DNA of 58,488 nucleotides from an uncultured Gemmatimonadota bacterium (GCA_964576115.1 CAZNUA010000022.1:1-58488), one strand, 5' to 3'. Positions 3,019-48,218 are shown, numbered from the stretch's first letter. Notes: a model not told the origin generated them from the letters alone. Translations and numbers: made by a program.

Positions 3019-3447
3019 ATGCGATTCCCACTCTCACCGAAAGGCCGGTGGCGCCCTCTGGTCACGGCCCTGATCATCTTCGGTACCGCCGGGGCCATCG
3101 GTTGCGCCGCCGCGGCGCCGAACCTGAACCAGCCGCGCATCCGGAACAAACTCGACCTGCGCCTGCAGAACGCTCTGGGCGGCAGTACGGTCGGCGAAAC
3201 TCTCGGGGAATACATCCGGGTGCTGGTCAAACTCGAGAGCGACGGTACCGATGACGATCTCGCCCAGCTCAAGACGATCGGCGCTACCTCTCCCTTCACC
3301 GGCGCCATCACCACCATGACTCTCGAACCGGCCCGGGTCATCGACCTGGCGGTCCTGGACAGGGTCGTCTCCATCGAGCTCGAGTCACCGAACGCCCCCA
3401 AACCCAATCTGCCCCCACCCCCGCCTGCAGCAGGAGACATGTTGTGA
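3019..3447 (+). CDS. Small exported (probable lipo)protein resembling a subtilase prodomain
   Basis: AAGGAGG RBS before ATG 3019; hydrophobic leader ending AIGC; visible similarity to the prodomain of the downstream S8 protease; stop overlaps the S8 start. Confidence 0.7.
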   Translation: MRFPLSPKGRWRPLVTALIIFGTAGAIGCAAAAPNLNQPRIRNKLDLRLQNALGGSTVGETLGEYIRVLVKLESDGTDDDLAQLKTIGATSPFTGAITTMTLEPARVIDLAVLDRVVSIELESPNAPKPNLPPPPPAAGDML

Positions 3448-31821: not shown

Positions 31822-34266
31822 TCATTCCAGGCGCAGGACCGAAGCCGGGTCGGTTCGCGCCGCCCGCACGGCGGGTACCGTACCGGCGATCAGAGCGATG
31901 AGACCGAGCACGATCACAGCACCGATCATGGTCGTCGTATCGGTTACACCTACCCCATAGATGAAACTGGCCAGCAGGCGGTTCAGTCCCAAGGCCGCCG
32001 CCAGTCCAACCAGCAGACCGGTACCCACCAGCAGAGCCCCCTGCCGCAGAACCAGAGTGATGATCCGGTTGCTGTCGGCGCCCAGCGCCACCCGGATACC
32101 GAGTTCGTTCTGCCGTGAGGCCACCGAATAACTCAGCACGCCGTAGAGCCCGACTGCGGACAGTACCAGCGCTGCGGAGGCAAAGATGAGCAGGATCAGC
32201 ATGAACGACCGGCGGGCGGTCAGTGAGGTGGAGAGAACGTCCTCGATCATCCGGATATCGTTGAGCGGCTGGCGCGGGTCGATCTCGAGCACGGCCTCGC
32301 GCAGGCCGCGGATGAATCCTTCGTCCGGCCGGGCGTGATCGACGACCAGGGTCATATAGGCCATCGGCGCCTGCAGGTAGCTGCGGTAGATCTCCGACCG
32401 GGGCGCTTCATCGAGCCCGTCGAAGAGAGTATTGCCGACGATCCCGACGATCGTCGACCAGGCGAAATCGGGCGTATCGGGGTCGTCCCAGGTGACCCGC
32501 TTGCCGATCGGATCCTCATCGGGCCAGAATTCGGCCGCCGCGGCCTCGTTGATGACGACCGCGTGGGGTGCGCCGCCGTCATCCTCGGCGGTGAGCAGCC
32601 GTCCCCGGATCAAGGGGATTTCCATAACCTCGAAATACCCGGGAGTGGCGATCTGATAACCGGTCGCCGGTCCTTCGCCCGGTTCGTAGGTGCGGCCTTC
32701 GATATCGAATCCGATGTTGCCGGTAATGGCCGGGTCGATCGGCAGACTCAGGATTCCCGCCGCCCGGCGTACTCCCGGCAGGGCCTCGATGTTCTCGATA
32801 ATCCGTTCGTAGTGCAGGGCGGGATCGTCGAGTTCGCCCATGGTGGTTGAGGGAATCCAGAGGTTGGCGGCCAGCACGCCCTCGGTCCGGAAACCGGGGT
32901 CAACCGCCCGGAGGTTCATGAAGGTCCGCAGCATCAGGCCGGCACCGACGAGCAGGAGCAGCGAGAGCGCGACTTCAGCCACGATCAGAGTGTTGCGGAG
33001 TCGACTGCGGCTGCGCCCACCGCTCAGATGTCCCCCCCCCTCGCGGATGGCGGCGTGCAGATCGCCCCGCAGGACCTGACTGGAGGGGACGAGGCCGAAG
33101 ACGATGCCGGTGAGCATCGAGACGGTAATGGTGAAAATGATGACCCGTCCGTTTATGGCGACCGCCGCTGCCCGGGGGAGTTCTTCGGGAGAGAGCGCCA
33201 GGAGAGCGTCGGTTCCCCAGAGAGCGAGAATGATCCCGAGACCTCCCCCCATCAGCGCCAGGACCACGCTCTCGGAGATCAGCTGCAGCGTCAGCCGCTG
33301 TCCTCCGGCCCCCAGGGCGCTGCGCACGCCCAGTTCCTGGGCCCGTCCGGTGGCTCTGACGATCAGCAGGTTGGCCACATTGGCACAGGCGATCAGCAGC
33401 ACGAAACCGACCGCAGCCAGAAAGACGATCAGGGTTCCCCGAACATCTCCTACCACCGTTTCCTTCATCGGTTCGAGAAGGATTCCCTCGTCCTGATTCG
33501 TGTCAGGATACTCTTCGGCCAGGTTGGCGGCGATGGCACTCATCTCGGCCTGCGCCTGTTCGAGAGTCACGTCCTCTTTGATCCGGCCGAAAACGTTGAA
33601 ATATTCGGCCCCACGCATCGCCTCGGGATCTGGTCCGATGTTGACGGGCGGATCGGGTACCCGCCAGCGGGCCGCTTTCCAGATCTCGACCCCGGGAGCG
33701 AAATCGAAGTCGGCCGGGAGAACCCCGACGATGAGCCACGGCTCGTCGCTGAGCGAGAGGGTCCGTCCGACGACAGCTGGATCGGAACCGAACGAAGATC
33801 GCCAGAGAGCATCGGATATCAGGGCCACCCGCTCACCGCCGGGAAGATCGATGCCGGGATCGAAAACCCGTCCTAGCTGAGCCCGGATTCCGAGCAGTTT
33901 GAAGAAAGTCGCCGTGACGCTGACTCCGTCGGCCTGCCGGGGGATTCCGTCTTCGAGCAGGATCCCGTCACTGCCGCACCAACCCGCCAGCCCCTCCAAA
34001 GTCGTGTTCATCTCCGCCCAGTCGATGAAGTCTGCGGGAGCGACGTTGTCCTGTTCGAATCCGGGGGAGACCCCGAAAAGCCTGATCAGGCGCTCCGAGT
34101 CCGGGTAATCGAGCGGTTCCAGAATGATCGTATTGACGATGCTGAAGATCGAGGCGGTGGCGCCGATCCCCAGCGCCAGAGTGAAGACCGCCACCACGGT
34201 GAAGCGCGGCTGGCGCAGCATGGTGCGCAGGCCGTAGCGCAGATCGAACAGCAGGTTTCCCATCAT
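31822..34266 (-). CDS. MacB/FtsX-type duplicated ABC permease (ADOP-like)
   Basis: DLRYGLR...P.FT.VAV.TLALGIGA, LLIACANVANL, E.G.R.ALGA twice, two periplasmic domains, terminal DP...LR.E. Confidence 0.92.
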   Translation of the reverse strand: MMGNLLFDLRYGLRTMLRQPRFTVVAVFTLALGIGATASIFSIVNTIILEPLDYPDSERLIRLFGVSPGFEQDNVAPADFIDWAEMNTTLEGLAGWCGSDGILLEDGIPRQADGVSVTATFFKLLGIRAQLGRVFDPGIDLPGGERVALISDALWRSSFGSDPAVVGRTLSLSDEPWLIVGVLPADFDFAPGVEIWKAARWRVPDPPVNIGPDPEAMRGAEYFNVFGRIKEDVTLEQAQAEMSAIAANLAEEYPDTNQDEGILLEPMKETVVGDVRGTLIVFLAAVGFVLLIACANVANLLIVRATGRAQELGVRSALGAGGQRLTLQLISESVVLALMGGGLGIILALWGTDALLALSPEELPRAAAVAINGRVIIFTITVSMLTGIVFGLVPSSQVLRGDLHAAIREGGGHLSGGRSRSRLRNTLIVAEVALSLLLLVGAGLMLRTFMNLRAVDPGFRTEGVLAANLWIPSTTMGELDDPALHYERIIENIEALPGVRRAAGILSLPIDPAITGNIGFDIEGRTYEPGEGPATGYQIATPGYFEVMEIPLIRGRLLTAEDDGGAPHAVVINEAAAAEFWPDEDPIGKRVTWDDPDTPDFAWSTIVGIVGNTLFDGLDEAPRSEIYRSYLQAPMAYMTLVVDHARPDEGFIRGLREAVLEIDPRQPLNDIRMIEDVLSTSLTARRSFMLILLIFASAALVLSAVGLYGVLSYSVASRQNELGIRVALGADSNRIITLVLRQGALLVGTGLLVGLAAALGLNRLLASFIYGVGVTDTTTMIGAVIVLGLIALIAGTVPAVRAARTDPASVLRLE

Positions 34267-34310
34267 GCGTCTCCCGAGCGGGGATGATGACAGATCTCGG
34301 AGGAAATTTC

Positions 34311-34326
34311 CGCAAGAAATGTGCCA
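34311..34326 (-). promoter_or_regulatory. Sigma54 (-24/-12) promoter
   Basis: Minus strand TGGCAC-ATTTC-TTGCG, 45 bp upstream of the permease ATG. Confidence 0.7.
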
Positions 34327-34518
34327 ACAGCAGCCGGCCGAAAGAACATCCGAAGCTGTCCGCAATCACACCGAAGACTACTTTCGATCCGGACCTGCCG
34401 GTGTCCGCCTGCGGGAAGGTCGTGTGCCGGAAACGGACAGAGGTATGAGACTGCCCTCAGGAGGAAAGATCCGGCCCTATCTGGCAGTAAACGGAGTCTG
34501 GTCCGTCCTCTGCCAGCC

Positions 34519-37197
34519 TTACTCCTGCCGCAGGGTCTCCACCGGATCGATCCGGGTCGTCCGCCAGGCCGGCGCCCATACGGCCACGATCGCAACCAGG
34601 GCCAGAAAGACCGGCGCCGCGATAAAGGTGACGGGGTCGATCGCCGCCACGCCGAAGAGCTGGCTGCGATAGACGATCCCGAGCGCCCCGGCCAGGGGCA
34701 ATCCGATCCCGATCCCGATGGCCACCTTGAGCAATCCCTGTCCGATCACCATCCCGAGCAGATTCGGGCTGCGGGCCCCGAGGGCCATCCGGATGCCGAT
34801 CTCATGCCGGCGCTGGGTAGTCGCAAAGGCCATCACCCCGTAGATGCCGACTGCGGCCAGCAGGAGCGCGGCGCCGGCAAAAAGGCCGAGCAGGAGGGTG
34901 ATGAAACCGCTCTCTTCGGTGGAGGCTCGCCGGTAGTCCTCCATGGTTCTGACCTGCGAGATCGGCTGTTCGGGATCCAGCTTCAGAACCTGGTCCCGGA
35001 TCGGTTCGACCAGGGCGAGAGGATCGCCGGCCGTTTTGGCTACCAGGTAGTAACCCAGGTCGTTGTCGAGAGCGTGCGGGATGTAGATCTGCCAGCGGGA
35101 CTGCTCGGCCACACCATTGAGTTTGACATGGTCGACCACCCCGACGACCTCGAGCCAGTCGGGATCGGGGTCATCAAAGGAACCAAAGGCGAGCCGCTTG
35201 CCCAGCGGGCTCTCTCCCGGCCAGTAATGTTCGGCGACCTGCTCGTCCACGATCACTGTCAGCCGGTTGCCGGTGCCGTCGTCTTCACGGGTGAATTCGC
35301 GCCCGGCGAGCAGGGCAATCCCCATGGTGCGGAAATAGTCGGCACTGACCGCACTCATCTCGGCGAAGATCCCGCCCTCGTTCTCCGGCGGCGGGTGGCC
35401 TTCGACGTGAAAGCTGTTCTGCCAGTTGTCGCGCCCCAGCGGCAGGACGTAGGTCGTAGCGGCCGAGACCACCCCGGGCAGGGCCCGGACGCGATCGAGC
35501 AGATCGTAGTAGAAGGCAAGACGCCGGGCCTCATCAGGGTATTTCGCCCCCGGCAGATCGATTTCCATGCTCAGGACGTTGTCCGCTTCGAGCCCGGTTT
35601 CGGCCCCGGTCATCTGCGCGAAACTCCTGAGCATGAGTCCGGCCCCGGTCAACAGGACCAGCGCCAGGGTCATCTCGATTACGACCAGACCGCCCTGCAG
35701 GCGCTGCCGGCCCCGCCCGGCCGAAGAGCGGGTACCTTCCTTGAGGAACTCCTGCAGGGCGGGCCGTCTGGCCTTCAGAGCCGGAGCCAGCCCGAAGAGC
35801 AGACCGGTCAGCAGAGCGATCAGGAGGGTGCCGGCAATGACTGTGAAATCCACGCTGATCGTGAAGATGCGGGGGATCTCCCCGGCCAGAGTTGTCGCCA
35901 GAATGCGGGTAGTCCCGAAAGCCAGGGCTATCCCGAGCGCACCTCCCGTGAGCCAGAGCAGAAGGCTTTCAGACAGCATGAGCCGGATCAGCTGCCCGCC
36001 CCCTGCTCCGAGCGTGGAACGGACTGCAAGCTCGTGCTGGCGGGTCGTGGCTCGTACGACGAGGATATTGGCTACATTGGCGCAGGCAATCAGCAGCAAC
36101 AACCCGACCGCCAGCAGCAGAATCAGAAGAGGCGTCCGGGAATCCTCCGTCATCATGGTGTGGAGCATCTCGCTGTTGATCCGAACTCCGGTATTGGTGT
36201 CGGGGTATTCCTGTTCGATCTCGATCGCCACCCGTTCCAGATCCGCCCGGGCTTCTTCCAGGTCAACCCCCGGCCGCAGGCGCCCGAGGGCCGCGATCCC
36301 CGGGTGATTGCCCCGGTTGGTGATCCAGTTCTCGGCAAAGAGCGCGATCGGCACATAGATATCCACCTGACTGCTTCCCGGGGGAAACAGAAAATCCTGC
36401 CCGACGACGCCGACAATCGTGTAGGGTTGATCATCGAGTGTGAGCACCCGTCCCAGGATCTCCGGATCACCGCCGAACCGCTCGTTCCAGCACCCCAGGG
36501 AGAGGATCGTCACCCGTTCGGCACCGATCTGGTCATCCTCGGGAGTGAAGGCCCGGCCCATAAACGGTTCGATCCCGATCAGATCGAAGGAGGAAGCCGT
36601 GATCCGGGCCATGCGCAGTTCAACCGGGTGGCCTTCACCGCTCAGGTTCAATCCCCCGTAGTTGTAGCAGGCCATCTCTTCGAAGACCGTGTTCCGCTCC
36701 CGCCAGTCGAGATAGTTCGGATACGAGACCGAGGCATCGGGAAAATTGCGCAGGCGCTCCCAGAGATACACCATCCGGTCACTGTCCTGATAGGGCAGCG
36801 GCGCGAGCAGTACCCCGTTCACCAGACTCAGGATGGTCGCAGTGGCGCCGATGCCCAGGGCCAGGGTCAGCACGGCTATGACGGAAACCAGCGGACTCTT
36901 CCGGAACATACGCAGGCCGAATTTCAGATCACCGGTGATACCATCCATGGCGAGTCTCCTCTGCTCCCGACGCACCGCCGGTTCGGTGACGGTCCGGCAA
37001 TCCGCTTCGATTTGGGTCAGGTTCCCGAAAACCTCCCGAGCCCGGCGCCGGGCCTGCCCGGGCTCGATCCCCTCCGCTATGAACTCCCGGGCCCGCATCT
37101 CGAGGTAGAACTCGATCTCGTCGCGGATATCGCGTTCGGAGTCGAAGCGGAAACGGGTGATCCGGAACAGACGTCTGAAGGGTTTCGGCACAGACAT
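34519..37197 (-). CDS. ADOP-family duplicated permease with permease-prefix domain
   Basis: Prefix DIRDEIEFYLE...G..P.QARRRA...FG, followed by the same duplicated MacB architecture. Confidence 0.92.
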   Translation of the reverse strand: MSVPKPFRRLFRITRFRFDSERDIRDEIEFYLEMRAREFIAEGIEPGQARRRAREVFGNLTQIEADCRTVTEPAVRREQRRLAMDGITGDLKFGLRMFRKSPLVSVIAVLTLALGIGATATILSLVNGVLLAPLPYQDSDRMVYLWERLRNFPDASVSYPNYLDWRERNTVFEEMACYNYGGLNLSGEGHPVELRMARITASSFDLIGIEPFMGRAFTPEDDQIGAERVTILSLGCWNERFGGDPEILGRVLTLDDQPYTIVGVVGQDFLFPPGSSQVDIYVPIALFAENWITNRGNHPGIAALGRLRPGVDLEEARADLERVAIEIEQEYPDTNTGVRINSEMLHTMMTEDSRTPLLILLLAVGLLLLIACANVANILVVRATTRQHELAVRSTLGAGGGQLIRLMLSESLLLWLTGGALGIALAFGTTRILATTLAGEIPRIFTISVDFTVIAGTLLIALLTGLLFGLAPALKARRPALQEFLKEGTRSSAGRGRQRLQGGLVVIEMTLALVLLTGAGLMLRSFAQMTGAETGLEADNVLSMEIDLPGAKYPDEARRLAFYYDLLDRVRALPGVVSAATTYVLPLGRDNWQNSFHVEGHPPPENEGGIFAEMSAVSADYFRTMGIALLAGREFTREDDGTGNRLTVIVDEQVAEHYWPGESPLGKRLAFGSFDDPDPDWLEVVGVVDHVKLNGVAEQSRWQIYIPHALDNDLGYYLVAKTAGDPLALVEPIRDQVLKLDPEQPISQVRTMEDYRRASTEESGFITLLLGLFAGAALLLAAVGIYGVMAFATTQRRHEIGIRMALGARSPNLLGMVIGQGLLKVAIGIGIGLPLAGALGIVYRSQLFGVAAIDPVTFIAAPVFLALVAIVAVWAPAWRTTRIDPVETLRQE

Positions 37198-37285
37198 GGG
37201 ATTCGGGTTCCTGATTCTCTCCTGCGACCGTTTCGTCAGCAACGACACCGGCCTCGTCGGCAATCGTGCCAGCTGTACGGCTAAC

Positions 37286-37338
37286 ACCTCAGTGGTTTAG
37301 GTATATAACTATACGCGGCGTACCGGTACAGGGTTTCA
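37286..37338 (-). promoter_or_regulatory. Candidate ECF-type promoter plus dyad operator
   Basis: Minus strand TGAAAC-N17-CGTATA, then the dyads GTATA-N4-TATAC and ACCTAAAC-CAC-TGAGGT. Confidence 0.4.
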
Positions 37339-37438
37339 ATCCTGTGGCGGCGGCAGTCGTCAATCACCTGCAACCGCAGGTGAACCGTGCCCTGCAGACA
37401 TGTACTTCTCGAGGGGTGGGGTGGGTGTACGGCGCCCT

Positions 37439-38788
37439 TTACTCCGTGCCCGGTACCGGTACCACCACCGGCAGGTCCACCGGTCCGAGAGCGATCCGGT
37501 CGGGACCGAGCCTGAGATCGGAATTCATCATCTCATCCCAGATGACCTCCCGCCCGGTGTAGGCCGAGATCCTCCCCATGATGGCGCACAGGGTCGAGAT
37601 GGCGGTGTTTTCGGCCTCGTTGAAGGGCGTTCCGGTTCTGATGGCAGTGACCAGGTCGATGTGTTCCTGATCGTAGGGGTCGACCGCCACCCGGCCGGTG
37701 GATTCACCTTCTTCGTTGAGCGGGTAGGGGTACTCCCAGACGAGTCTGCCCTCGAGGTCCCAGATCTTGTTTTGGCAGTTCGTGTAGCCCGTCGTGCCCA
37801 TCACGAACTCCGAGACGTTGCGGGCACAACCGTCGATCTGCCGGCACATGCTGTGCTCGTGCATATTGTCGGCATGGATGAAATCGACGCTGAAGAAGTC
37901 GTACTGATCGCCGGTGACCCGGCGGTGGCGGCCGCCGAAGCCGACCGCCTGGATGGGGTGCGAACCGGCGAACCAGTTGATCACGTCGAGATTGTGCACG
38001 TGCTGCTCGACGATGTGATCGCCCGAGAGCCAGCACCAGTTGACCCAGTCGCGGATCATCCATTCCATGTCCGACCAGCCGCGCTCGCGGGTCTTGTACC
38101 AGAGCTGACCCTGGTTCCAGTAACAGTTGGCTCCCGTGATCTCGCCGATCAGACCGGCCGCGACCTGACGGAAGGTCGCGACGTAATCGCGCTGGTGACG
38201 CCGCTGGGTGCCGGTCACGACGCATAGTCCCCGTGAGTCGGCCCGGCGGGCGGTGGCCATGATCGAGCGGGCCCCGACCGGATCGACCGCGACCGGCTTT
38301 TCCATGAAGACGTGCTTGCCGGCGTTCACGGCAGCTTCGAAATGGACCGGCCGGAAATACGGCGGGGTGGCGATCAGCACCACGTCCACGCCCGAGTCGA
38401 TCAGCCGTTCATAGGCATCGAAACCGAGAAAGCAGTTCTCGTCGGGAACTTCGACTCCGCGGTGCTCGCGGATCGAGGCTCGACAGCTCTCGAGCCGGTC
38501 CTCGAAAACATCTGCCAGGGCTATCAGCTCCAGGTTCGGACCGGCGCCGAGAAACTGCCGTGCCGCACCGGTGCCCCGACCGCCGCAGCCGATCAGGCCG
38601 GCTTTGAGAACCGGGCCGTCGGGGGCGGTGTCGAGCAGGGCGGGATAGGGGTAGTCGGCATGCTGGGACAGAGGACCGCCCGAACCGCTGCAGCCCGCCA
38701 GGGCGGCTGCGGCTGCGCCGGCGGCGCCGATCGCCGCCGCCGTGCCGATGAACTCGCGCCGGCTCGGCGCACCTGATGTCTCACTCAT
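37439..38788 (-). CDS. Tat-exported Gfo/Idh/MocA oxidoreductase
   Basis: SRREF Tat leader (possible lipobox LAGC); GLIGCGGRG, ATPP, EKP, GTQRRH and DHIVEQHVHNLD motifs. Confidence 0.92.
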   Translation of the reverse strand: MSETSGAPSRREFIGTAAAIGAAGAAAAALAGCSGSGGPLSQHADYPYPALLDTAPDGPVLKAGLIGCGGRGTGAARQFLGAGPNLELIALADVFEDRLESCRASIREHRGVEVPDENCFLGFDAYERLIDSGVDVVLIATPPYFRPVHFEAAVNAGKHVFMEKPVAVDPVGARSIMATARRADSRGLCVVTGTQRRHQRDYVATFRQVAAGLIGEITGANCYWNQGQLWYKTRERGWSDMEWMIRDWVNWCWLSGDHIVEQHVHNLDVINWFAGSHPIQAVGFGGRHRRVTGDQYDFFSVDFIHADNMHEHSMCRQIDGCARNVSEFVMGTTGYTNCQNKIWDLEGRLVWEYPYPLNEEGESTGRVAVDPYDQEHIDLVTAIRTGTPFNEAENTAISTLCAIMGRISAYTGREVIWDEMMNSDLRLGPDRIALGPVDLPVVVPVPGTE

Positions 38789-40274
38789 TGTCCGGCTCCT
38801 TCTCCGCGGGGGGAGACCCGAGTGTATCAGAGAACGGGGAGGAACAAACAACCCGGAAACCGACATGGTCGCAGTCGGAATACCACCAGCGACTCTTCGG
38901 CATCTGCGGATCGGAACGCAGCCATTCGTCGGAACGCGTGCGATTGCGGGCAGCGCAACGCACCCCGGCTGCCGAACTGCGGTACGAGCCCCCCCGTACC
39001 ACATATTCTTCGCTCCCTTCAGCCCAGCGATCGGCGCAGAATTCCGCGACGTTACCGAGCATGTGCACCAGCCCGAAGGGGTTGGGTTCGACCGCTGATG
39101 GAGGCTCGGTGCGCTGCCGGGAGGTGCGAGCGAAGACGACGTAGCGTCCGGCCCGATCGAGAGTCTTCGAACCGAAGATCCGGGCCGTCAGGCCGCGGCG
39201 AGTCAGTCGGCGGGGATCGGCCGCGAAGAAGTAGGGTGTCTCGGTGCCTCCCCGGGCGGCGTACTCCCACTCGGCCTCGGTCGGCAGGCGGTAGGCACGG
39301 CCGGTCACTTCACTGAGCCAGCGGCAGTAGCTCTGAGCGGCATGGTGGGTCATGGTGATCGCCGGCCGCGTCCCCCGTCCCCAACCCTGGTCGGGATTAC
39401 CATAGGGGGCTGTGGCTCCGGTGACAGCATCAACGCCTCCGGGGAGCGCGGGTCCCAGAGCGCGGGTGTCGGTCCGGCCCTCGACCGAGGTGGCCCGGTA
39501 CCAGGCCTCGAACTCGTTCCACGACACCTCGGCCCGCCCCATCCAGAAGGGCTCGACCTGCACCTCGCGCGGCGCTCCCTCATCGGCCGAGCGCAGGGGT
39601 TCGGTGAGGGGACTGCCCATCTGGAACGTGCCGCCGGGGATGGCTGCCATGTCGAACGTGACTGTCGTGCCGGGTATCCGTTCGGTGAAGTCGGTGAAGC
39701 CCGCCACCACGGCGGGCTCCTCGAAGACCTCGCCGGCGGCTTCCCGGGCCGATCCGACTGTCAGTCCCCGGGTGGCCGTGGAGTCGTGGTGCCCCACCTG
39801 CAGGTGGCAGGTGATGCAGTAGAGTCCTTCGGGATTCCGTTCGTAATACAGATGGGCTTTCTCGCCCTCCTCGGTCAGGGTGGCGGGGTACAGATTGGCG
39901 TGACAGACCAGGCAGGAGGCTTCGAACGTATGGGTGACGGCATACTCGGGCCGGGACTTGGCGAGCCAGTCGATCCGCTCCCGGTCCTTGAAGACAGCTC
40001 CCCAGGCATCGCGCAGGCCCAGGCGGGTCTTCTGCAGGGCGTAGGGCACGCCACCCGGGGGCAGGTGACACTGCACGCAGTGCACCCCTCTACCCCGGCG
40101 GGCCCAGTAATGGGTGGAAAGCTGCCAGGTGGCGGTGGCGTGGGGATGAATGTGACAGGAGGCGCAGAAACGGTCGGTCGAGGTCAGACGGTTGGCCGCC
40201 CCGAAGAGCGGCACCGCCGCCGCGGCCAGGACGACCCCGATGACGAGGACGCGAGTTCTCTTACTGAGACGCAC
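38781..40274 (-). CDS. NapC/NirT-type tetraheme cytochrome c fused to an FGE-sulfatase (SUMF1-like) domain
   Basis: N-terminal TM helix; CASCH, CVQCH, CLVCH, CITCH; then IPGGTFQMGS, YRLPTEAEWEYAARGG, PNPFGL..MLGNVAE, RGGS, GFR. Start probably GTG at 40274. Confidence 0.85.
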   Translation of the reverse strand: MRLSKRTRVLVIGVVLAAAAVPLFGAANRLTSTDRFCASCHIHPHATATWQLSTHYWARRGRGVHCVQCHLPPGGVPYALQKTRLGLRDAWGAVFKDRERIDWLAKSRPEYAVTHTFEASCLVCHANLYPATLTEEGEKAHLYYERNPEGLYCITCHLQVGHHDSTATRGLTVGSAREAAGEVFEEPAVVAGFTDFTERIPGTTVTFDMAAIPGGTFQMGSPLTEPLRSADEGAPREVQVEPFWMGRAEVSWNEFEAWYRATSVEGRTDTRALGPALPGGVDAVTGATAPYGNPDQGWGRGTRPAITMTHHAAQSYCRWLSEVTGRAYRLPTEAEWEYAARGGTETPYFFAADPRRLTRRGLTARIFGSKTLDRAGRYVVFARTSRQRTEPPSAVEPNPFGLVHMLGNVAEFCADRWAEGSEEYVVRGGSYRSSAAGVRCAARNRTRSDEWLRSDPQMPKSRWWYSDCDHVGFRVVCSSPFSDTLGSPPAEKEPDNE

Positions 40275-40281
40275 GATCGGC

Positions 40282-41229
40282 TCAATCCATCGTGAAGGTG
40301 TTCTTGGCAAAGGTCACGTTTCGGCGGGTGTCCTCGATGAACCGGTCACGGCGCCCGCTGGTTTCGAGCACCAGCCACTTGTTATAGCCGATGTCGTCCA
40401 GGGCCCGGGCGCAGGCGGCCATGTCGACCATGCACCCCTCACTGCCGAGCAGGGGGGTGCTTTTATCCTTCAGGTGCACCTCGCAGATCATCTCGTTGCC
40501 GAGCAGACGCAGCTCACCCGGCACGTCGTAGCCGTTGCCCCACGAGTTGCCCACGTCGTAGTACACCTGAACCCACTGCGAACCGACGCGCTCGATGATG
40601 TCGAGGTTCTGGCGGGCGGTGATGGTGTTCTCCAGGCCCAGCACCACTCCGGCGTCGCGGGCTCGCGGTACGAGGTGCTTGAGAGTCTGCACGACCTTCT
40701 CGACCCAGTCCTCTTTCAGCTCGTAGGAACTGAAACCGCCTTCGGGGTGATCGATATACTCGCCGGCCTCATCGCGGCGGCACAGATCGCCGTTGCCGAA
40801 AAAGGCCAGCAGCACGTTGCGGGCGCCCAGGGCCGCGGCCGCTTCGACGGCATCGGCCACCCAGAGAGCGGCATAGGGCTCGGTGGCCAGGGGGTAGGAA
40901 TTGAGCAGGCCGCCGGCGGCGACCGAATGAAAGGTGATGCCGTGCTGCCGGCCGAGCCGGAGGTAACGCCGGCGCAGGGCCGGATCGCGCAGGGGAATGG
41001 TGTCGAGATCGCTCCCCACGCTGACCTGGATACCCTCCAGATGCGCCTCTTCAGCCCGGGGGATCTGCTCGGGATCGCACATCGGCCCCAGGTTCCAGTC
41101 GCACATACCGATCCCGGCCGCACCGGTCAGGAGAACGCCGTGCGAACCGGCCTCGATCCCGCGCGGCAGCCCCAGGGCCGCCAGCCCCGCTCCCGCCGCC
41201 GTCATGAATTTCCTGCGGTTCATCGCCAT
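40282..41229 (-). CDS. Tat-exported sugar-phosphate isomerase/epimerase (xylose-isomerase-like TIM barrel)
   Basis: MNRRKF Tat leader; LGLEN, YYDVGN, EVHLKD and LVLET metal-binding motifs; GAGGGGG RBS. Confidence 0.85.
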   Translation of the reverse strand: MAMNRRKFMTAAGAGLAALGLPRGIEAGSHGVLLTGAAGIGMCDWNLGPMCDPEQIPRAEEAHLEGIQVSVGSDLDTIPLRDPALRRRYLRLGRQHGITFHSVAAGGLLNSYPLATEPYAALWVADAVEAAAALGARNVLLAFFGNGDLCRRDEAGEYIDHPEGGFSSYELKEDWVEKVVQTLKHLVPRARDAGVVLGLENTITARQNLDIIERVGSQWVQVYYDVGNSWGNGYDVPGELRLLGNEMICEVHLKDKSTPLLGSEGCMVDMAACARALDDIGYNKWLVLETSGRRDRFIEDTRRNVTFAKNTFTMD

Positions 41230-41372
41230 CTGATGGTCCCCCCTCTGACAGAGTCGGAGGTGCTCTGGTGAAGGAAAATAGGCCGCGGCTCGAGCCGGAG
41301 CAAGGCGGGTGCCCGTCACCGGTCTGGTTACCGATCGGATATCGGGCGGCACGTATCTGTCCGGGGACGGGC

Positions 41373-42419
41373 TCAGCGAACCCGGCCGATGTCGCGGATG
41401 CCGCCCCGGATGAAATCGGCCATGCCGGTCGAGGCGACGATCTCCCGGTCGCGGGTGATGAGCAGGGCTTCGACACCGGCCAGATCCTCGACCAGGGCCA
41501 GTCCCGCCTCCGGTCCCAGTACGAAGACACTGGTCGAGAGGGCATCGGCATCCACGGCCAGAGCGGTCATGACGGTGGCGCTGATCAGGGCCGTGGCGCT
41601 GCGCCCGGTGCGCGGATCGACGATGTGGTGATGTTCGAAGCCGGGATCGAAGTACCGCTCGTAATCGCCGCTGGTGGTGACCGAGCCGTCGGTGATTTCG
41701 ATCACGGCCAGGTAGTCGCCGGGGTCGCGCGGGTTCTGCAGGGCGATCCGCCACGGCTCGCCGTTATTGTCACCCAGGGCCCGGATATCGCCTCCGGCGT
41801 TGACCAGGGCGTCCCGTATCCCGGCCCGTTTCAGGGTCTCGACGGCCCGGTCGATGATATACCCCTTGGCCAGGCCTCCCAGATCGATCCGGGTGCCTTC
41901 TGACAGGGCGACCCTCTTCCCCGTGATCGAGAGCCGCTCGAATCCCTCCAGCCGCCGGGCACTGTCGATCCGGGCCGCCGTCGGTGGCTGACCCGAACGC
42001 GTAAAGGACCGATCGTAGACCTCGAGAACCGGCTTCACGGTGATATCGAAAGCCCCCCGACTCAGCTCGTAATAGCGACCGGCGGCTCCGAGCACGGCGA
42101 TCAGATCGGGACCGGCCTCGATCGAGCCGGAGCGGTTCAGCCGGCTGACCTGGCTTGAATCGCGATAGACGCTCAGGGCCGCTTCGATTCGTTCAATCTC
42201 GCCGAAAGCGGCTTCGATGGCGCCCCGCGCCCGGCGTCGGGAGTGATGCAGGACAGTGATGGTGACCGAAGTGCCCATGGCCGGCCGCATGACGCGGGTT
42301 GCGGGCCGCGCATCGCGGGCCTCGGTGAGCAGAACCAGGGCCAGGAGGATGAGCGGCGCCGTGATGTAGAGCCAGCGCAGTTCATCGGGAATCCGCAGAC
42401 GTGTCCGTGACGATGGCAT
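41373..42419 (-). CDS. apbE: FAD:protein FMN transferase ApbE
   Basis: AMGT, GAFDITV, IDLGGLAKGY, NAGGDI, TTSGDYERYF, HHIVDPRTG and ADALST motifs. Confidence 0.92.
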   Translation of the reverse strand: MPSSRTRLRIPDELRWLYITAPLILLALVLLTEARDARPATRVMRPAMGTSVTITVLHHSRRRARGAIEAAFGEIERIEAALSVYRDSSQVSRLNRSGSIEAGPDLIAVLGAAGRYYELSRGAFDITVKPVLEVYDRSFTRSGQPPTAARIDSARRLEGFERLSITGKRVALSEGTRIDLGGLAKGYIIDRAVETLKRAGIRDALVNAGGDIRALGDNNGEPWRIALQNPRDPGDYLAVIEITDGSVTTSGDYERYFDPGFEHHHIVDPRTGRSATALISATVMTALAVDADALSTSVFVLGPEAGLALVEDLAGVEALLITRDREIVASTGMADFIRGGIRDIGRVR

Positions 42420-42450
42420 CCGGTCCTGCCTCAGATCGCTTTCATCTCCG

Positions 42451-42705
42451 TTACTTCTCGTGGTTTTCTCCACCTGCTGAAAGCACCCGCATCCCGGCCT
42501 TCTGAGCCGCTTCATCCACGAGAATCTCCGAGGGCGCCAGCTGCAGTTCAGTCGCCACCAAATGCAGCGACCGGGGCAGGATGGAGTCGCGGCGGGCCAG
42601 GGAATAGAACGCATTCCGGCTCACACCGGCCCTGGCCAGCATTTCGGACAGAGTCAGTCCGCGTCGCCGACATTCCTCTTTGATTGTCCACAGATCGAGC
42701 CGCAT
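42451..42705 (-). CDS. Small Cro/C1-type HTH protein
   Basis: RGLTLSEMLARAGVSRNAFYSL helix-turn-helix. Confidence 0.7.
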   Translation of the reverse strand: MRLDLWTIKEECRRRGLTLSEMLARAGVSRNAFYSLARRDSILPRSLHLVATELQLAPSEILVDEAAQKAGMRVLSAGGENHEK

Positions 42706-42711
42706 GATCAG

Positions 42712-42740
42712 ATTGTACTAAAATATGGTACATAACGCAA
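42712..42740 (-). promoter_or_regulatory. Sigma70-type promoter for a probable leaderless HTH mRNA, with overlapping dyad
   Basis: TTGCGT-N17-TACAAT-N6-ATG; dyad TGTAC-N9-GTACA at 42714-42732. Confidence 0.55.
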
Positions 42741-42770
42741 CCACCCCCACCGGAACGATTCGCAGAGACG

Positions 42771-42802
42771 TTGACAGTGAATACTATTATATTATATTAT
42801 AA
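42771..42802 (+). promoter_or_regulatory. vapBC promoter with TATTA x3 direct repeat
   Basis: TTGACA at 42771 followed by TATTATATTATATTATAA; GGAGG RBS before 42825. Confidence 0.6.
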
Positions 42803-42824
42803 CAGCATTTAATGGAGGATAGCC

Positions 42825-43082
42825 ATGCAGGTCTCTCTCTACCTCACCGATGAACTGCTCGCCCGTCTGGACGAGTTGGCCGGCAGTACCGGCCGGAGTC
42901 GGTCAGCGACCGTTCAACACCTGCTCGAACGCACTCTTGCCAGCGGTGGCGACAGGGATCTGCTCACCCTGGCCGGAGCCTGGCGCGATCCCCGGCCGGC
43001 CGAGCAGATCATCAGAGAAGTGACTGAAGGACGGCTGTACAACCGGCGTTCGGAACGCAACGACCCGGGTAGCACCCCGTGA
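42825..43082 (+). CDS. Ribbon-helix-helix (CopG-like) antitoxin, VapB-type
   Basis: MQVSLYLTDELLARLDELA..GRSRS RHH pattern; LAGAW.D C-terminal motif; overlaps the PIN gene (GTGA). Confidence 0.8.
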   Translation: MQVSLYLTDELLARLDELAGSTGRSRSATVQHLLERTLASGGDRDLLTLAGAWRDPRPAEQIIREVTEGRLYNRRSERNDPGSTP

Positions 43083-43477
43083 ACCGGCTCCTGGACACCG
43101 ATATTATCATCCATTTCCTGCGCGGCCACGAACGGGTGGTGCACCGGATGGCCACCCTGCCCCATTCCTCTCTGGCGGTGCCTGCCATCGCCGTCGCCGA
43201 ACTGTATTTCGGGGCTTTCAACTCCATTGACCCCGCTCGGAACTGTGCCGTCGTCGACACCCTGCGCCGACAGGTACAGATCATTCCCTTCGATGACGAG
43301 GCGGCGGTTCTCTTCGGGCGTCTCAAAGCAAGACTGCGGGATGAGGGAGCGCTCATCCCCGATTCCGCTCTCTTCATCGCCGCCACCGCCCTGGTGACCG
43401 GTTCGGTTCTGGTGACGGCCAATACCACGCACTTCGAGCGCATCGAGGAACTGCGCCTGGAGGACTGGACCCGCTGA
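43079..43477 (+). CDS. vapC: VapC PIN-domain toxin
   Basis: LLDTDIII, AVAELYFG, FIAATAL....LVTAN..HFERI..L.LEDW motifs. Confidence 0.9.
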   Translation: MNRLLDTDIIIHFLRGHERVVHRMATLPHSSLAVPAIAVAELYFGAFNSIDPARNCAVVDTLRRQVQIIPFDDEAAVLFGRLKARLRDEGALIPDSALFIAATALVTGSVLVTANTTHFERIEELRLEDWTR

Positions 43478-45290: not shown

Positions 45291-48218
45291 TCACGATCCT
45301 TCCGGGTTGGTGGTGAAGGGAACGGTGAAGTGGTAGCGCCCCGAACCGGCGTGAAAGAGCACGGTGTATCTGTCTCCTATCCGGTCTTCCGATCGGACTG
45401 TCGCGTGCCTGATGTCGAACTCCGATATCCCCGGAGCTTCCTGCAGGGGCTTCTCGCCCTCGCGGGCGAGATCGTGATCGCCCCAGATTCGACCCGAGGC
45501 CGGCAGCGAAACATGCGCGATTGTATTGGGCGGAACCGTCAGATCCACCTCGAGGGCATCTCCCTCGATCCGCCAGGCAACCTCGATCGGGCCCCGGATC
45601 GACTCATACCTCCCGCGGGCCCATGTGAGCCCACCGCCGGGACGGGGTTGTACCTCGAACTGCTCATAGCCCGGATACTCCTCGTCGGGAGCAAGCCCCA
45701 CCACGTTCTGCCAGATCCACTCCCCGATCGAGCCGAAGGCGTAGTGGTTGAAAGAGTTCATGCCGGGATCGTGGAAACCCCGTCCGGCCACATAGCCGTC
45801 CCAGCGCTCCCACATGGTGGTCGCCCCCTGATCGATCATGTAGCCCCACGAGGGCGGGGTGCGGAGGGTGAGCAGCTCGTAGGCCCGCTCCAGCGGCAGC
45901 ACTCGCAGGGCCGGCAGGGTGGTATGAAAACCGGTCGAAAGATGACCGTTGAAACGTTCCAGGGCGGGGACGAGCCGGTTCCATATCCCCATCATCTGGT
46001 CCACAATCCGGCGCCCTGTCCCGGTTGAGTCATACAAGAACAGTCTCCGGTCATAGGCCAGGACGTAACCGCCCAGAGTATCGCCCCGCATCGCGCCATC
46101 GGCGTCCACATAGGTCGTCATGAAGGCCCGTTTGATCCGTTCGTAGAGTTCGTCATACCGCGCGGCGTCATCCTCCCGGCCCAGGATCTGAGCCATGCGC
46201 GCCACCAGGCGGGTCGACTCGGCCCAGGTGGCGGTGGCGAAGAGGTCTTTGGGAACTGTACTGCTCCCGGTCGGAAAGCCCTCGAGCCGCACCAGATCGC
46301 CGTTGAGCCAGTCGCCGTAATCGTTGCCGCGGTTACGGGTCCAGAGGTAGTCGGGGTTTTCCGCCGCGATCCAGTCGATCCAGCGCCGGGCGGCCTCGAA
46401 GTTCTCCGTGAGGGCCCGCTCATCGGCGTAGTTGAGATAGAGGCGCCAGGGGATGACGACCCCGGCGTCGCCCCAGGCGGGCACGCCGGCGAAGGCGTCG
46501 GTGTTGCGGGCTGGACCCCGCGGCGCGAAATCGGGAAAACGGCCGTCGGGGAGCTGGCCGTCGCGCAGGTCGCCGCAGAACTTGGTGAAGAAGGCGGCCA
46601 TATCCATCGTATAGGCGGCCGTCTGAGCGAAAATGTTGATATCACCGGTCCAGCCCAGCCGTTCGTCTCGCTGGGGACAGTCGGTCGGCACGCCGTGCAG
46701 GTTGCCGCGCAGTCCCCAGCGGATGTTCTCCATGAGCCGGTTGAGCAGGTCGCTCGAGCAGGAGAACTCGCTCACCTCCGGTGCCCGGGTACAGAAGGGC
46801 AGGCCGACCAGTTTCTCGATCCGCGGCGCTTCGGGCTCGCCGGTCACCTCGACATAGCGGAATCCATGATAGGTGAAGTGAGGTTCGAAGACCTCCCGCC
46901 CCGAGCCGTCGAGAACATACGTCTCGGTCGCCTTCGCCCCCCGCAGGTTGGCGACATAGATGGTCCCGTCTTCGGCGAGCCGCTCGGCATGACGCACGCG
47001 TACCGTCGTGCCGGCCGGGCCCCGCAGGGTCAGCCGGCACCAGCCGACCATGTTCTGCCCCAGATCGTAGACCCGGACTCCGGGAGCGGGTTCGGTGACT
47101 GTGACCGGTTCGAGTTCGGCGAAAACCCCGATCGGTTCCGCGGGCTGCCAGCAGAGACGGGTGGCGTCGCGCGGGACCACCTCGACCGCCTCCCAGGCAC
47201 TGTCATCGAAACCCGGTTCGTCCCAGCCGGGCATGGCCCGGCGGGCATCGATCGTCTCGCCGTCGTAGATCCCCGCGGCCCGGATCGGCCCCTCGAGAGT
47301 GGCCCGCCACTCGCTGTCCGAGGTGATCGTCATCCGCTCTCCGGCGGTCGTATCGAGCTCGAGCTGAAGCAGTAACTGGGGGTACTCGCCGTAGACGTCG
47401 TTCCAGGCTTCCCACCCCAGGCGGCCGGCGTACCACCCCTCGCCCAACAGAACCCCCAGGGCATTCGCACCCCGCTGCACAAGTCCGGTCACGTCGTAGG
47501 TCTGGTACTGAATCCGGCGATCGTACGCGGTCCATTCCGGCGCAAGGATCCGCTCCCCCACCCGCCGGCCGTTCAGACGGACCTCGTAGACCCCCCGAGC
47601 GGTGATATAGAGGGTGGCCCGCTCGACCCGGTCGGCCAGCGCGAATTCGCGGCGCAGCAGCGGTGCGGCCTGGGCCGGCCTGTTCCCTTCCCGTTCGGGG
47701 CCCGCTTCTTCCGGCAGGGGAGGCCGGGGCAGACCGATCCACTCGGCCGACCAGTCGGCCGGTTCGAGCAAACCCATCGACCAGCGGGCCGGCTCGCTCC
47801 ACTCCGACTCAGCTCCCTCCCGGTCCCTGACCCGCACCTTCCACCAGCACACCATCTGGGAGCGCAGGGGTGCACCCGCGTACTGAACCCCGAGCTGCCG
47901 ATCGGACTCGACCCAGCCGCTGTCCCATAGCTCGCCCTCATCGCGATCCAGCGCAGCCTCACTGCCGGCCACCACGACCCGCCAGGCGGTCTGGACCTGT
48001 CCCCGATCGGAGACGTCCCGATCCGTACCGGCCGGTTCGAGGCGCCAGCTCAGCCGGGGTCCGGTCACATCGATGCCCTGCGGATCGATCCGGTACTCGC
48101 ACTCCAGATCGGCAGGGCGGATGGCGGCTTTCGGCCGATGCGCACACCCGGTCAGAACCGTCCCCGAGAAACAGGTGGTCAGGACGATCAACAGGATGGA
48201 AGTCTGAGACCTGATCAT
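45291..48218 (-). CDS. GH78 alpha-L-rhamnosidase (lipoprotein)
   Basis: Lipobox LTGC; PRLSW, DLGQNMVGW, FTYHGFRY, PTDCPQRDERLGWTGD, GATTMWERW and SFNHYAFG motifs. Confidence 0.93.
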   Translation of the reverse strand: MIRSQTSILLIVLTTCFSGTVLTGCAHRPKAAIRPADLECEYRIDPQGIDVTGPRLSWRLEPAGTDRDVSDRGQVQTAWRVVVAGSEAALDRDEGELWDSGWVESDRQLGVQYAGAPLRSQMVCWWKVRVRDREGAESEWSEPARWSMGLLEPADWSAEWIGLPRPPLPEEAGPEREGNRPAQAAPLLRREFALADRVERATLYITARGVYEVRLNGRRVGERILAPEWTAYDRRIQYQTYDVTGLVQRGANALGVLLGEGWYAGRLGWEAWNDVYGEYPQLLLQLELDTTAGERMTITSDSEWRATLEGPIRAAGIYDGETIDARRAMPGWDEPGFDDSAWEAVEVVPRDATRLCWQPAEPIGVFAELEPVTVTEPAPGVRVYDLGQNMVGWCRLTLRGPAGTTVRVRHAERLAEDGTIYVANLRGAKATETYVLDGSGREVFEPHFTYHGFRYVEVTGEPEAPRIEKLVGLPFCTRAPEVSEFSCSSDLLNRLMENIRWGLRGNLHGVPTDCPQRDERLGWTGDINIFAQTAAYTMDMAAFFTKFCGDLRDGQLPDGRFPDFAPRGPARNTDAFAGVPAWGDAGVVIPWRLYLNYADERALTENFEAARRWIDWIAAENPDYLWTRNRGNDYGDWLNGDLVRLEGFPTGSSTVPKDLFATATWAESTRLVARMAQILGREDDAARYDELYERIKRAFMTTYVDADGAMRGDTLGGYVLAYDRRLFLYDSTGTGRRIVDQMMGIWNRLVPALERFNGHLSTGFHTTLPALRVLPLERAYELLTLRTPPSWGYMIDQGATTMWERWDGYVAGRGFHDPGMNSFNHYAFGSIGEWIWQNVVGLAPDEEYPGYEQFEVQPRPGGGLTWARGRYESIRGPIEVAWRIEGDALEVDLTVPPNTIAHVSLPASGRIWGDHDLAREGEKPLQEAPGISEFDIRHATVRSEDRIGDRYTVLFHAGSGRYHFTVPFTTNPEGS

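Follow-up and report, generated by a model that had tools for sequence, protein, structure and literature searches.

A four-gene cluster of an uncultured Gemmatimonadota bacterium and a putative flavin-carrying FGE-fold partner of Tat-exported Gfo/Idh/MocA dehydrogenases

The extracytoplasmic electron carriers that Meheust et al. (2021, PMC8238504) and a review (PMC12052999) name as flavinylated by ApbE comprise the FMN_bind domains of NqrC, RnfG, NosR and PplA as well as DUF2271 and DUF3570. The flavinylation motif has been defined as D-x-x-[S/T]-G-A-[S/T] (PMC12052999, section 8 'Flavinylation motif'). Periplasmic oxidation of glycosides is coupled to cytochrome c and respiration by LacABC and ThuAB, two mutually unrelated glycoside 3-dehydrogenases that are contrasted with BT2158, an enzyme of the Gfo/Idh/MocA type, and for BT2158-type enzymes 'another as yet unidentified sugar' is postulated to re-oxidise the cofactor (Liu et al. 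2021, PMC8121099, Discussion). Here we report on four genes within a stretch of 58,488 nucleotides from an uncultured Gemmatimonadota bacterium (GCA_964576115.1 CAZNUA010000022.1:1-58488; the whole stretch will be referred to as the window), which encode an ApbE, a TIM barrel protein exported by twin-arginine translocation (Tat), a NapC/NirT tetrahaem cytochrome fused to a domain with the fold of the formylglycine-generating enzyme (FGE), and a Tat-exported Gfo/Idh/MocA oxidoreductase (GFO). Judged from their sequences, the four genes probably specify a dehydrogenase:quinone oxidoreductase that is anchored in the membrane and faces the periplasm, and in addition the enzyme for its maturation. 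The FGE-fold domain is likely to be a hitherto undescribed client of ApbE, whose flavin mononucleotide (FMN) would link the reduced nicotinamide adenine dinucleotide (phosphate), NAD(P)H, of the dehydrogenase to the haems and to quinone.

All four genes are located on the minus strand, in agreement with the co-orientation stated in an initial annotation of the window. The window has a GC content of approximately 0.60-0.68, and true genes were told from shadow reading frames by third-position GC content combined with domain scans. The apbE gene (41373-42419) matched Pfam PF02424 over the complete profile (positions 1-266/266; 282 bits, 6.4e-84), and the best solved relative of its product was 5mgy, a flavin adenine dinucleotide (FAD):protein FMN transferase (5e-46), followed by 12 more solved ApbE structures. 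The domain is preceded by an N-terminal hydrophobic segment (WLYITAPLILLALVLL), judged by eye to be a membrane anchor. The predicted product is a membrane-anchored FAD:protein FMN transferase and would be the cluster's own flavin-attaching enzyme. The next gene (40282-41229) encodes the xylose-isomerase-like TIM barrel (PF01261, 88.2 bits with a cut-off of 31.1, 9.4e-25), for which no solved relative was obtained at E<=0.01. The fusion gene (38781-40310) yields a protein of 509 amino acids from a TTG start or of 497 amino acids from a GTG at 40274, and the GFO gene (37439-38788) completes the cluster (PF01408, 58.6 bits, 1.3e-15). Both twin-arginine leaders predicted earlier were recovered, NRRKFM within the leader MAMNRRKFMT of the TIM barrel and SRREFIG in the GFO, the latter followed by LAGC, a possible lipobox, so that the GFO is possibly a lipoprotein. 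The stop codon of the fusion overlaps the GFO start by 8 nucleotides (nt), and the TTG start of the fusion overlaps the end of the TIM barrel gene. Co-translation of these three genes, which overlap or almost abut, is very likely. A scan of the minus strand from 37000 to 43200 for promoters and terminators gave nothing above shuffled expectation.

In the fusion protein, the NapC/NirT part covers residues 20-175 (PF03264, 83 bits with a cut-off of 24.1, 2.8e-23) and includes an N-terminal transmembrane helix. Its four CxxCH haem c motifs (39804-40166, minus strand; residues 49-53, 78-82, 133-137 and 165-169) contribute eight Cys and four His residues, all of which are invariant in an alignment of 38 sequences (A1). 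The FGE-fold part comprises residues 220-458 (PF03781, 125 bits, 3.7e-36). Within it, residues 294-300 (39411-39431, minus strand) read DAVTGAT and fit the published flavinylation motif. This sequence lies downstream of the c-type haem motifs and is therefore periplasmic; Thr300 is the predicted bearer of FMN. The pattern D..[ST]GA[ST] is rare in this genome of 3.96 Mb, DAVTGAT being one of only 5 matches among ~2,946 frames that are likely to be coding and total 1.28 million residues. In the GFO, the glycine-rich loop of the Rossmann fold (G67, G69, G72 and G74) is invariant in a second alignment (A2), and the best solved relatives, the C-glycoside 3-oxidase DgpA1 (6.6e-12) and inositol dehydrogenases, aligned with the Rossmann half only; the GFO is the candidate catalytic NAD(P)-type dehydrogenase of the cluster. 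None of the four proteins reached an equivalog cut-off in NCBIfam, and none matched FMN_bind (PF04205), DUF2271 (PF10029) or DUF3570 (PF12094).

A hydride donor such as bound NAD(P)H cannot directly feed one-electron haems, and a flavin is the usual adaptor. To our knowledge, there is no free route of flavoprotein assembly in the periplasm other than ApbE. Electron transfer from the GFO via FMN on Thr300 to the haems and further to quinone is therefore chemically sensible. According to this scheme, the GFO would fold around NAD(P) in the cytoplasm, be exported by Tat and oxidise a hydroxyl group of a sugar, polyol or glycoside, as its family membership suggests. ApbE would attach FMN to Thr300 of the DAVTGAT loop in the periplasm. 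The flavin, brought into contact with the GFO, would then take the hydride from GFO-bound NAD(P)H and pass single electrons to the four NapC/NirT haems, which would reduce membrane quinone, the thermodynamically favoured direction. The exported TIM barrel might act on the keto product as isomerase, lyase or hydratase.

The locus shares with known ApbE-client systems an extracytoplasmic ApbE beside its presumed client, a D-x-x-[ST]-G-A-[ST] motif and a proposed role as electron carrier linking a membrane module with a periplasmic enzyme, but differs in the FGE/SUMF1 fold of the carrier and in that most relatives have Pro, not Ala, before the target residue. Like NapC, NrfH, CymA, TorC and cytochrome cM552, the fusion possesses an N-terminal helix and four CxxCH motifs and exceeds the Pfam cut-off, whereas its C-terminal FGE-fold domain, and an NAD(P)-type dehydrogenase as partner instead of a molybdo- or multihaem reductase, set it apart; its scores with the NCBIfam equivalogs NrfH (60.9 bits, cut-off 134) and NapC/NirT (36.5 bits, cut-off 310) stay well below threshold. 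The GFO resembles glucose-fructose oxidoreductase (GFOR) of Zymomonas and BT2158 of B. thetaiotaomicron, likewise twin-arginine Rossmann-type sugar dehydrogenases with exported sugar-processing companions, but the similarity is weak (GFOR, 6.6e-4; BT_2158 family NF058561, 30 bits with a cut-off of 750). Unlike these enzymes, in which a second sugar is thought to re-oxidise the cofactor, it is encoded together with a haem partner and a putative flavin partner. LacABC and ThuAB use a flavin cofactor of their own, not bound NAD(P), and the module, set beside them by description only, would share with them cytochrome-linked periplasmic sugar oxidation. The main texts of PMC8238504, PMC11334425 and PMC12052999, from which the full tables of PMC8238504 may differ, contained none of the terms FGE, sulfatase and Gfo, and literature searches, which a slash-written 'Gfo/Idh/MocA' may escape, yielded no paper linking FGE-fold proteins to ApbE or to GFO. 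Coupling of a dehydrogenase through a covalent flavin and four haems to respiration was not found described in print. ApbE-dependent extracytoplasmic electron transfer is already known, and what is new here is the proposed client fold and its partner enzyme.

Conservation was first considered within the window's own family, for whose phylum only 10 species genomes were present in the collection. The fusion was detected in all six other genomes of the family (3 genera) and was not detected in the 3 genomes that represented two further families of the order. The gene order ApbE-TIM-NapC/FGE-GFO was identical in six loci, one contig ending before apbE, so that the clustering of the four genes was confirmed in 6/6 family genomes, with ApbE identity falling to ~50%. 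As these genomes are kin, the order demonstrates stability and not independent recurrence.

To look beyond the family, 8,000 candidates were scored in a homologue search with the fusion, 7,086 of which, not necessarily all fusions, were found at E<=0.001. The best 120 of the 7,086 (51-100% identical) all contained both domains; 72 carried D..[ST]GA[ST] and 48 a related variant in the same column, mostly D-A-I-S-G-P-T. Named homologues of the fusion came from Gemmatimonadota and Bacteroidota. We then compared 159 loci, 79 from genomes and 80 from metagenomes, belonging to five or more phyla. Neighbourhoods were scored with profiles made from the window's proteins; a first neighbourhood clustering had been dominated by antisense shadow open reading frames, and only its TIM barrel component was usable. 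The loop motif D-A-[IV]-x-x-[PA]-[ST]-x-P-Y was present in 112 of the 159 loci, and the other 47 were generic FGE loci. A Tat-type GFO was directly adjacent in 74/112 motif-bearing loci, ApbE lay within 3 kb in 32/112 and a Tat-TIM barrel within 4 kb in 27/112, all three being lower bounds because many contigs are short; the respective number for generic FGE loci was 0/47 in every case. All 74 GFO-adjacent FGE-fold proteins carried the motif including the terminal Ser/Thr, and 71/74 had Asp at its start. At position 7, Thr occurred in 88 loci and Ser in 24, a restriction set by the pattern used.

The motif-bearing proteins occurred in three architectures. In about 24 loci outside the window's family the FGE-fold domain was fused to a NapC tetrahaem module; in 14-15 loci it was accompanied by one or two CxxCH motifs in the absence of a NapC module, and all four such cytochrome-fused forms scanned with Pfam contained one or two PSCyt1 domains; in the third architecture it stood alone, haem-free and with a signal peptide for the general secretory (Sec) pathway. 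C-type haem modules have thus been acquired by the domain on at least two occasions and by different routes, NapC and PSCyt1. This repeated fusion points to a redox role of the family, and the step from hydride to haem needs a flavin. The proposal of the initial annotation, a flavinylated partner and a tetrahaem cytochrome re-oxidising the dehydrogenase, survived every comparative test that was run and is overall partly supported. Its 3-keto-glycoside chemistry fared less well and amounts to a family-level guess, given the distance of the GFO from the BT_2158 family and the occurrence of the TIM barrel in about a quarter of the motif-bearing loci. In two loci of Planctomycetota (L030, 7812-10414; L033, 1394-3651), two tandem FGE-fold paralogues were found with the loop motif in both.

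Several observations indicate which protein is served by the cluster's ApbE. The window genome contains two ApbE genes, of which the cluster copy is the second and the other an orphan, as well as an rnfCDGEAB operon whose RnfG, on another contig, is the sole FMN_bind protein. The orphan ApbE has rnfCDGEAB to serve, and the two account for housekeeping flavinylation in this genome; the cluster ApbE is therefore an extra copy. This RnfG (L081, 2191-2895, contig C19) reads L-T-G-A-T and lacks the consensus upstream Asp, and the pattern [ST]G[AS][ST] was not found in RnfD of the same genome.

The GFO was considered as an alternative client and rejected for now, since the pattern D..[ST]G[AP][ST] was found in none of 38 GFO partner sequences. 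The GFO partners are exported via Tat and thus in folded form, whereas the FGE-fold proteins, with a Sec signal or a membrane anchor, would acquire their fold where ApbE works. Two well-flanked loci of Flavobacteriaceae encode an FGE-fold protein with D-A-I-T-R-P-S, a secreted YceI-like protein and ApbE, in this order (L015, 7959-10637; L052, 7875-10484), with no GFO within 8 kb. Loci with ApbE and an FGE-fold gene but no GFO, together with GFO proteins devoid of the motif, indicate that ApbE follows the FGE-fold gene and not the GFO. YceI proteins bind polyisoprenoids or quinones, and the Flavobacteriaceae variant may represent a different outlet for the same carrier.

Bookkeeping of ApbE genes was performed for five genomes with ApbE at an FGE-GFO pair, with FMN_bind, NqrB/RnfD, DUF2271 and DUF3570 as the clients sought. 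FMN_bind was detected in none of the five, and a weak NqrB/RnfD-like match in at most one. The Pedobacter genome encodes 4 ApbEs, one beside DUF2271, one fused to DUF2271, one beside DUF3570 and one beside the FGE-GFO pair, and the Sphingobacterium genome two, one ~2.4 kb from DUF2271 and one beside the FGE-GFO pair. In the Phycisphaerales genome, the single ApbE is located at the FGE-GFO pair and none of the four client families sought was found. Where a motif-bearing gene lacked an adjacent ApbE, the enzyme was encoded elsewhere in the genome (36/36). A sample of 151 genomes of Planctomycetota (>=90% completeness requested; subfamily members defined by E<=1e-85) contained ApbE in 35/35 genomes with a subfamily member and in 87/116 without, and ApbE was situated within ~0.5 kb of the subfamily gene, usually divergently, in at least 24 of the 35. 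Within these two sets, every genome with the FGE-fold gene thus encodes an ApbE, as would be necessary for a client.

Two further loci place a second ApbE next to other genes. In L105 (5379-9226; G010, Planctomycetaceae), it precedes genes for a protein of 337 residues that matches DoxX weakly and for a Gfo/Idh/MocA-like protein of 517 residues, and a strict flavinylation motif was not found in the frames of this trio. In L106 (5563-8832; G013, Bryobacteraceae), it adjoins a DUF362 protein and a 311-residue protein without family match. The G013 genome lacks FMN_bind, DUF2271 and DUF3570, so that L106 may encode another ApbE client.

A tree of 30 ApbE sequences, 23 FGE-associated and 7 other, grouped 16 of the 23 from four phyla into one clade (98/98) that excludes the seven others, whereas the ApbEs of the window's family formed a clade of their own nearer to the classical enzymes. 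The label of FGE association requires three changes on this tree. Outside the window's family, all 32 ApbE-adjacent loci had Pro at position 6 of the motif, and none of the 18 loci with Ala had an adjacent ApbE. The dedicated clade and this Pro-only adjacency fit an ApbE dedicated to a non-canonical site. Pro-type forms include D-A-V-T-R-P-T in Pedobacter sp. Hv1 and Sphingobacterium sp. N143 (loci L036 and L025); Eudoraea adriatica DSM 19308 (L028) is another culturable carrier. We read these data such that a housekeeping ApbE can suffice for canonical sites, for instance in Bacteroidales with their Nqr and Rnf, and that the Pro-type site would need the dedicated enzyme; the window's family would then represent a canonical site that nonetheless kept its own ApbE.

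A number of results weigh against this interpretation. Position 6 is Pro in 94/112 motif-bearing loci and Ala in 18, and the canonical G-A is thus not a feature of the whole family. The suggestion of the initial annotation that DAVTGAT is the ApbE site is accordingly sustained as regards the loop and its Ser/Thr, kept in every GFO-adjacent protein, and not as regards the G-A. Of 25 NapC-FGE fusions outside the window's family (11 genome and 14 metagenome loci), 24 had no ApbE in the available flanks, including all 9 with canonical [ST]GA[ST]; an adjacent ApbE is thus no general feature of the architecture seen in the window. Kinship among the sampled genomes also means that the counts are not independent and overstate their statistical weight. 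When the FGE-fold domain was modelled alone (70 sequences), the mean pLDDT (predicted local distance difference test) was 88.7, but the DAVTGAT loop appeared as a long coil with a pLDDT of 57-59, from which a flavin pocket is not demonstrable. The GFO has one nearly invariant Thr, T332, a possible modification site, and NapC/NirT proteins usually oxidise quinol, which is the opposite direction of flow. Two other models carried no weight: the AlphaFold2 model of the whole fusion (38 sequences) had a mean pLDDT of 48.6 and was not used, and a co-fold in which the FGE-fold domain was combined with residues 46-449 of the GFO and with NAD and FMN (score 0.00, mark 0.32) was counted neither way.

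The lack of a conserved G-A and the fusions without adjacent ApbE could be taken to mean that the loop motif is structural and flavin-free, that ApbE serves another client such as Rnf or acts as an FAD pyrophosphatase or in flavin trafficking, and that the FGE-fold domain provides the dehydrogenase with a module for docking or for binding glycans. The fold is related to C-type lectins, the fusions without adjacent ApbE include those of Bacteroidota, and the window genome has Rnf, the classical ApbE client. We nevertheless regard this explanation as unlikely. It leaves unexplained why ApbE is found at this locus in genomes without the four client families sought, why a dedicated ApbE clade extends across four phyla, why ApbE and FGE-fold genes occur together in loci without GFO, and why the domain was repeatedly fused to haem modules and retained Ser/Thr at position 7 in every GFO-adjacent protein.

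The direction of flow raises a different question, namely whether the complex is a periplasmic reductase that is driven by quinol and works in the opposite sense, in which NapC would deliver electrons to the flavin and the GFO or the FGE-fold site would reduce an extracytoplasmic carbonyl or another acceptor. NapC, NrfH, TorC and CymA draw electrons from menaquinol, and the best matches of the cytochrome part were the NapC/NirT, NrfH and TorC models; among the matches of the GFO were ketoreductases as well (sugar 3-ketoreductase, 1,5-anhydro-D-fructose reductase). Transfer from quinol to bound NAD(P)+ would, however, be strongly uphill by the standard potentials, and a quinone-reducing member of the NapC/NirT family is known in cytochrome cM552 of Nitrosomonas. 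Moreover, the haem-free and the PSCyt1-fused forms lack any quinol site. A reductase is consequently quite improbable in our view, and oxidation of the GFO-bound cofactor by way of FMN remains the preferred reading.

With respect to its fold, the domain belongs with FGE, SUMF1, PvdO and PorK-GldK. Foldseek searches with the model returned PvdO first (TM score 0.73 on the target), followed by many FGEs (several with E 1e-15), at a probability of 1.00, and PvdO was also the closest solved structure in the sequence search (7.4e-19). In true FGEs, the catalytic, copper-binding Cys pair presumably lies just past the RGGS motif. The nine residues past RGGS contain no Cys here (window: RGGSYRSSAAGVRC), and no invariant Cys column was found across the domain in alignment A3, which makes FGE chemistry unlikely for the fusion; the HMMER alignments to FGE structures end at residue 431, short of the RGGS region. 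The domain further differs from true FGEs by the conserved motif loop and additionally has a conserved C-terminal stretch, D-P-Q-x-P-K-S-x-W-W. That catalysis resides in the domain, as a PvdO-like periplasmic dehydrogenase which oxidises a small molecule and passes the electrons to the fused haems, with GFO and TIM barrel as separate pathway enzymes and the GFO not its electron donor, would agree with the rank of PvdO in both searches and with its NCBIfam name, 'dihydropyoverdine dehydrogenase', but is improbable in view of a score of 90 bits with the NCBIfam PvdO model (cut-off 500), the lack of a DAVTGAT-type loop motif in PvdO in the printed alignment, and the near-obligate pairing with a Tat-type GFO (74/112, the genes often overlapping), which suggests a two-subunit enzyme.

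For the family at large, we see about an even chance that the FGE/SUMF1 fold constitutes a very widespread class of ApbE clients, in which FMN on the Thr or Ser of the loop turns the hydride on GFO-bound NAD(P)H into single electrons for c-type haems and the quinone pool. Bacteroidota, Planctomycetota, Verrucomicrobiota and Acidobacteriota are rich in exported GFO dehydrogenases, and this carrier would offer a respiratory route for re-oxidising their trapped NAD(P). It would count as the fourth fold among ApbE clients and explain thousands of genes currently named 'SUMF1/EgtB/PvdO family nonheme iron enzyme' or 'sulfatase modifying factor'. Recognition of D-A-[IV]-[ST]-R-P-[ST] by a dedicated ApbE clade would imply a wider recognition code of flavin transferases and might provide a naturally occurring non-canonical flavin tag. 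The window, with a canonical motif, its own adjacent ApbE and a single threonine, represents a convenient test case.

The surroundings of the cluster were described in the initial annotation as a glycoside hydrolase family 78 (GH78) gene and a permease. The GH78 gene is real (45291-48218, five rhamnosidase domains); the 'permease', a polytopic membrane protein of 591 residues, had no match in Pfam or NCBIfam. The cluster is contiguous with neither. Between apbE and these two genes lie, 31 nt upstream of apbE on the minus strand, an open reading frame of 84 residues (42451-42705) that by eye resembles a helix-turn-helix (HTH) regulator, and a plus-strand VapB-like/PIN toxin-antitoxin pair (42825-43477). 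In two other genera of the family the cluster adjoins the same S9 peptidase, but their loci of 18-19 kb yielded neither a GH78 gene nor the membrane protein; the contig of the same-genus relative ends before that point. On account of the intervening toxin-antitoxin pair and the absence in two other genera, both genes were rejected as parts of the module. The HTH-like gene and the VapB/PIN pair are all kept in the same-genus relative (L089) and were not found in the two other genera. A sigma-70-like promoter match (11/12) precedes the VapB/PIN pair at 42771-42800. Two tandem permeases of 850-925 residues with duplicated MacB_PCD and FtsX domains each (31822-37296) follow the cluster immediately downstream in the same orientation, and beyond them lies a glycoside hydrolase family 2 gene (29298-31628). 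A subtilase encoded at 3255-6374 carries a C-terminal Por_Secre_tail, a sorting domain of the type IX secretion system, which suggests that this small phylum possesses such a system.

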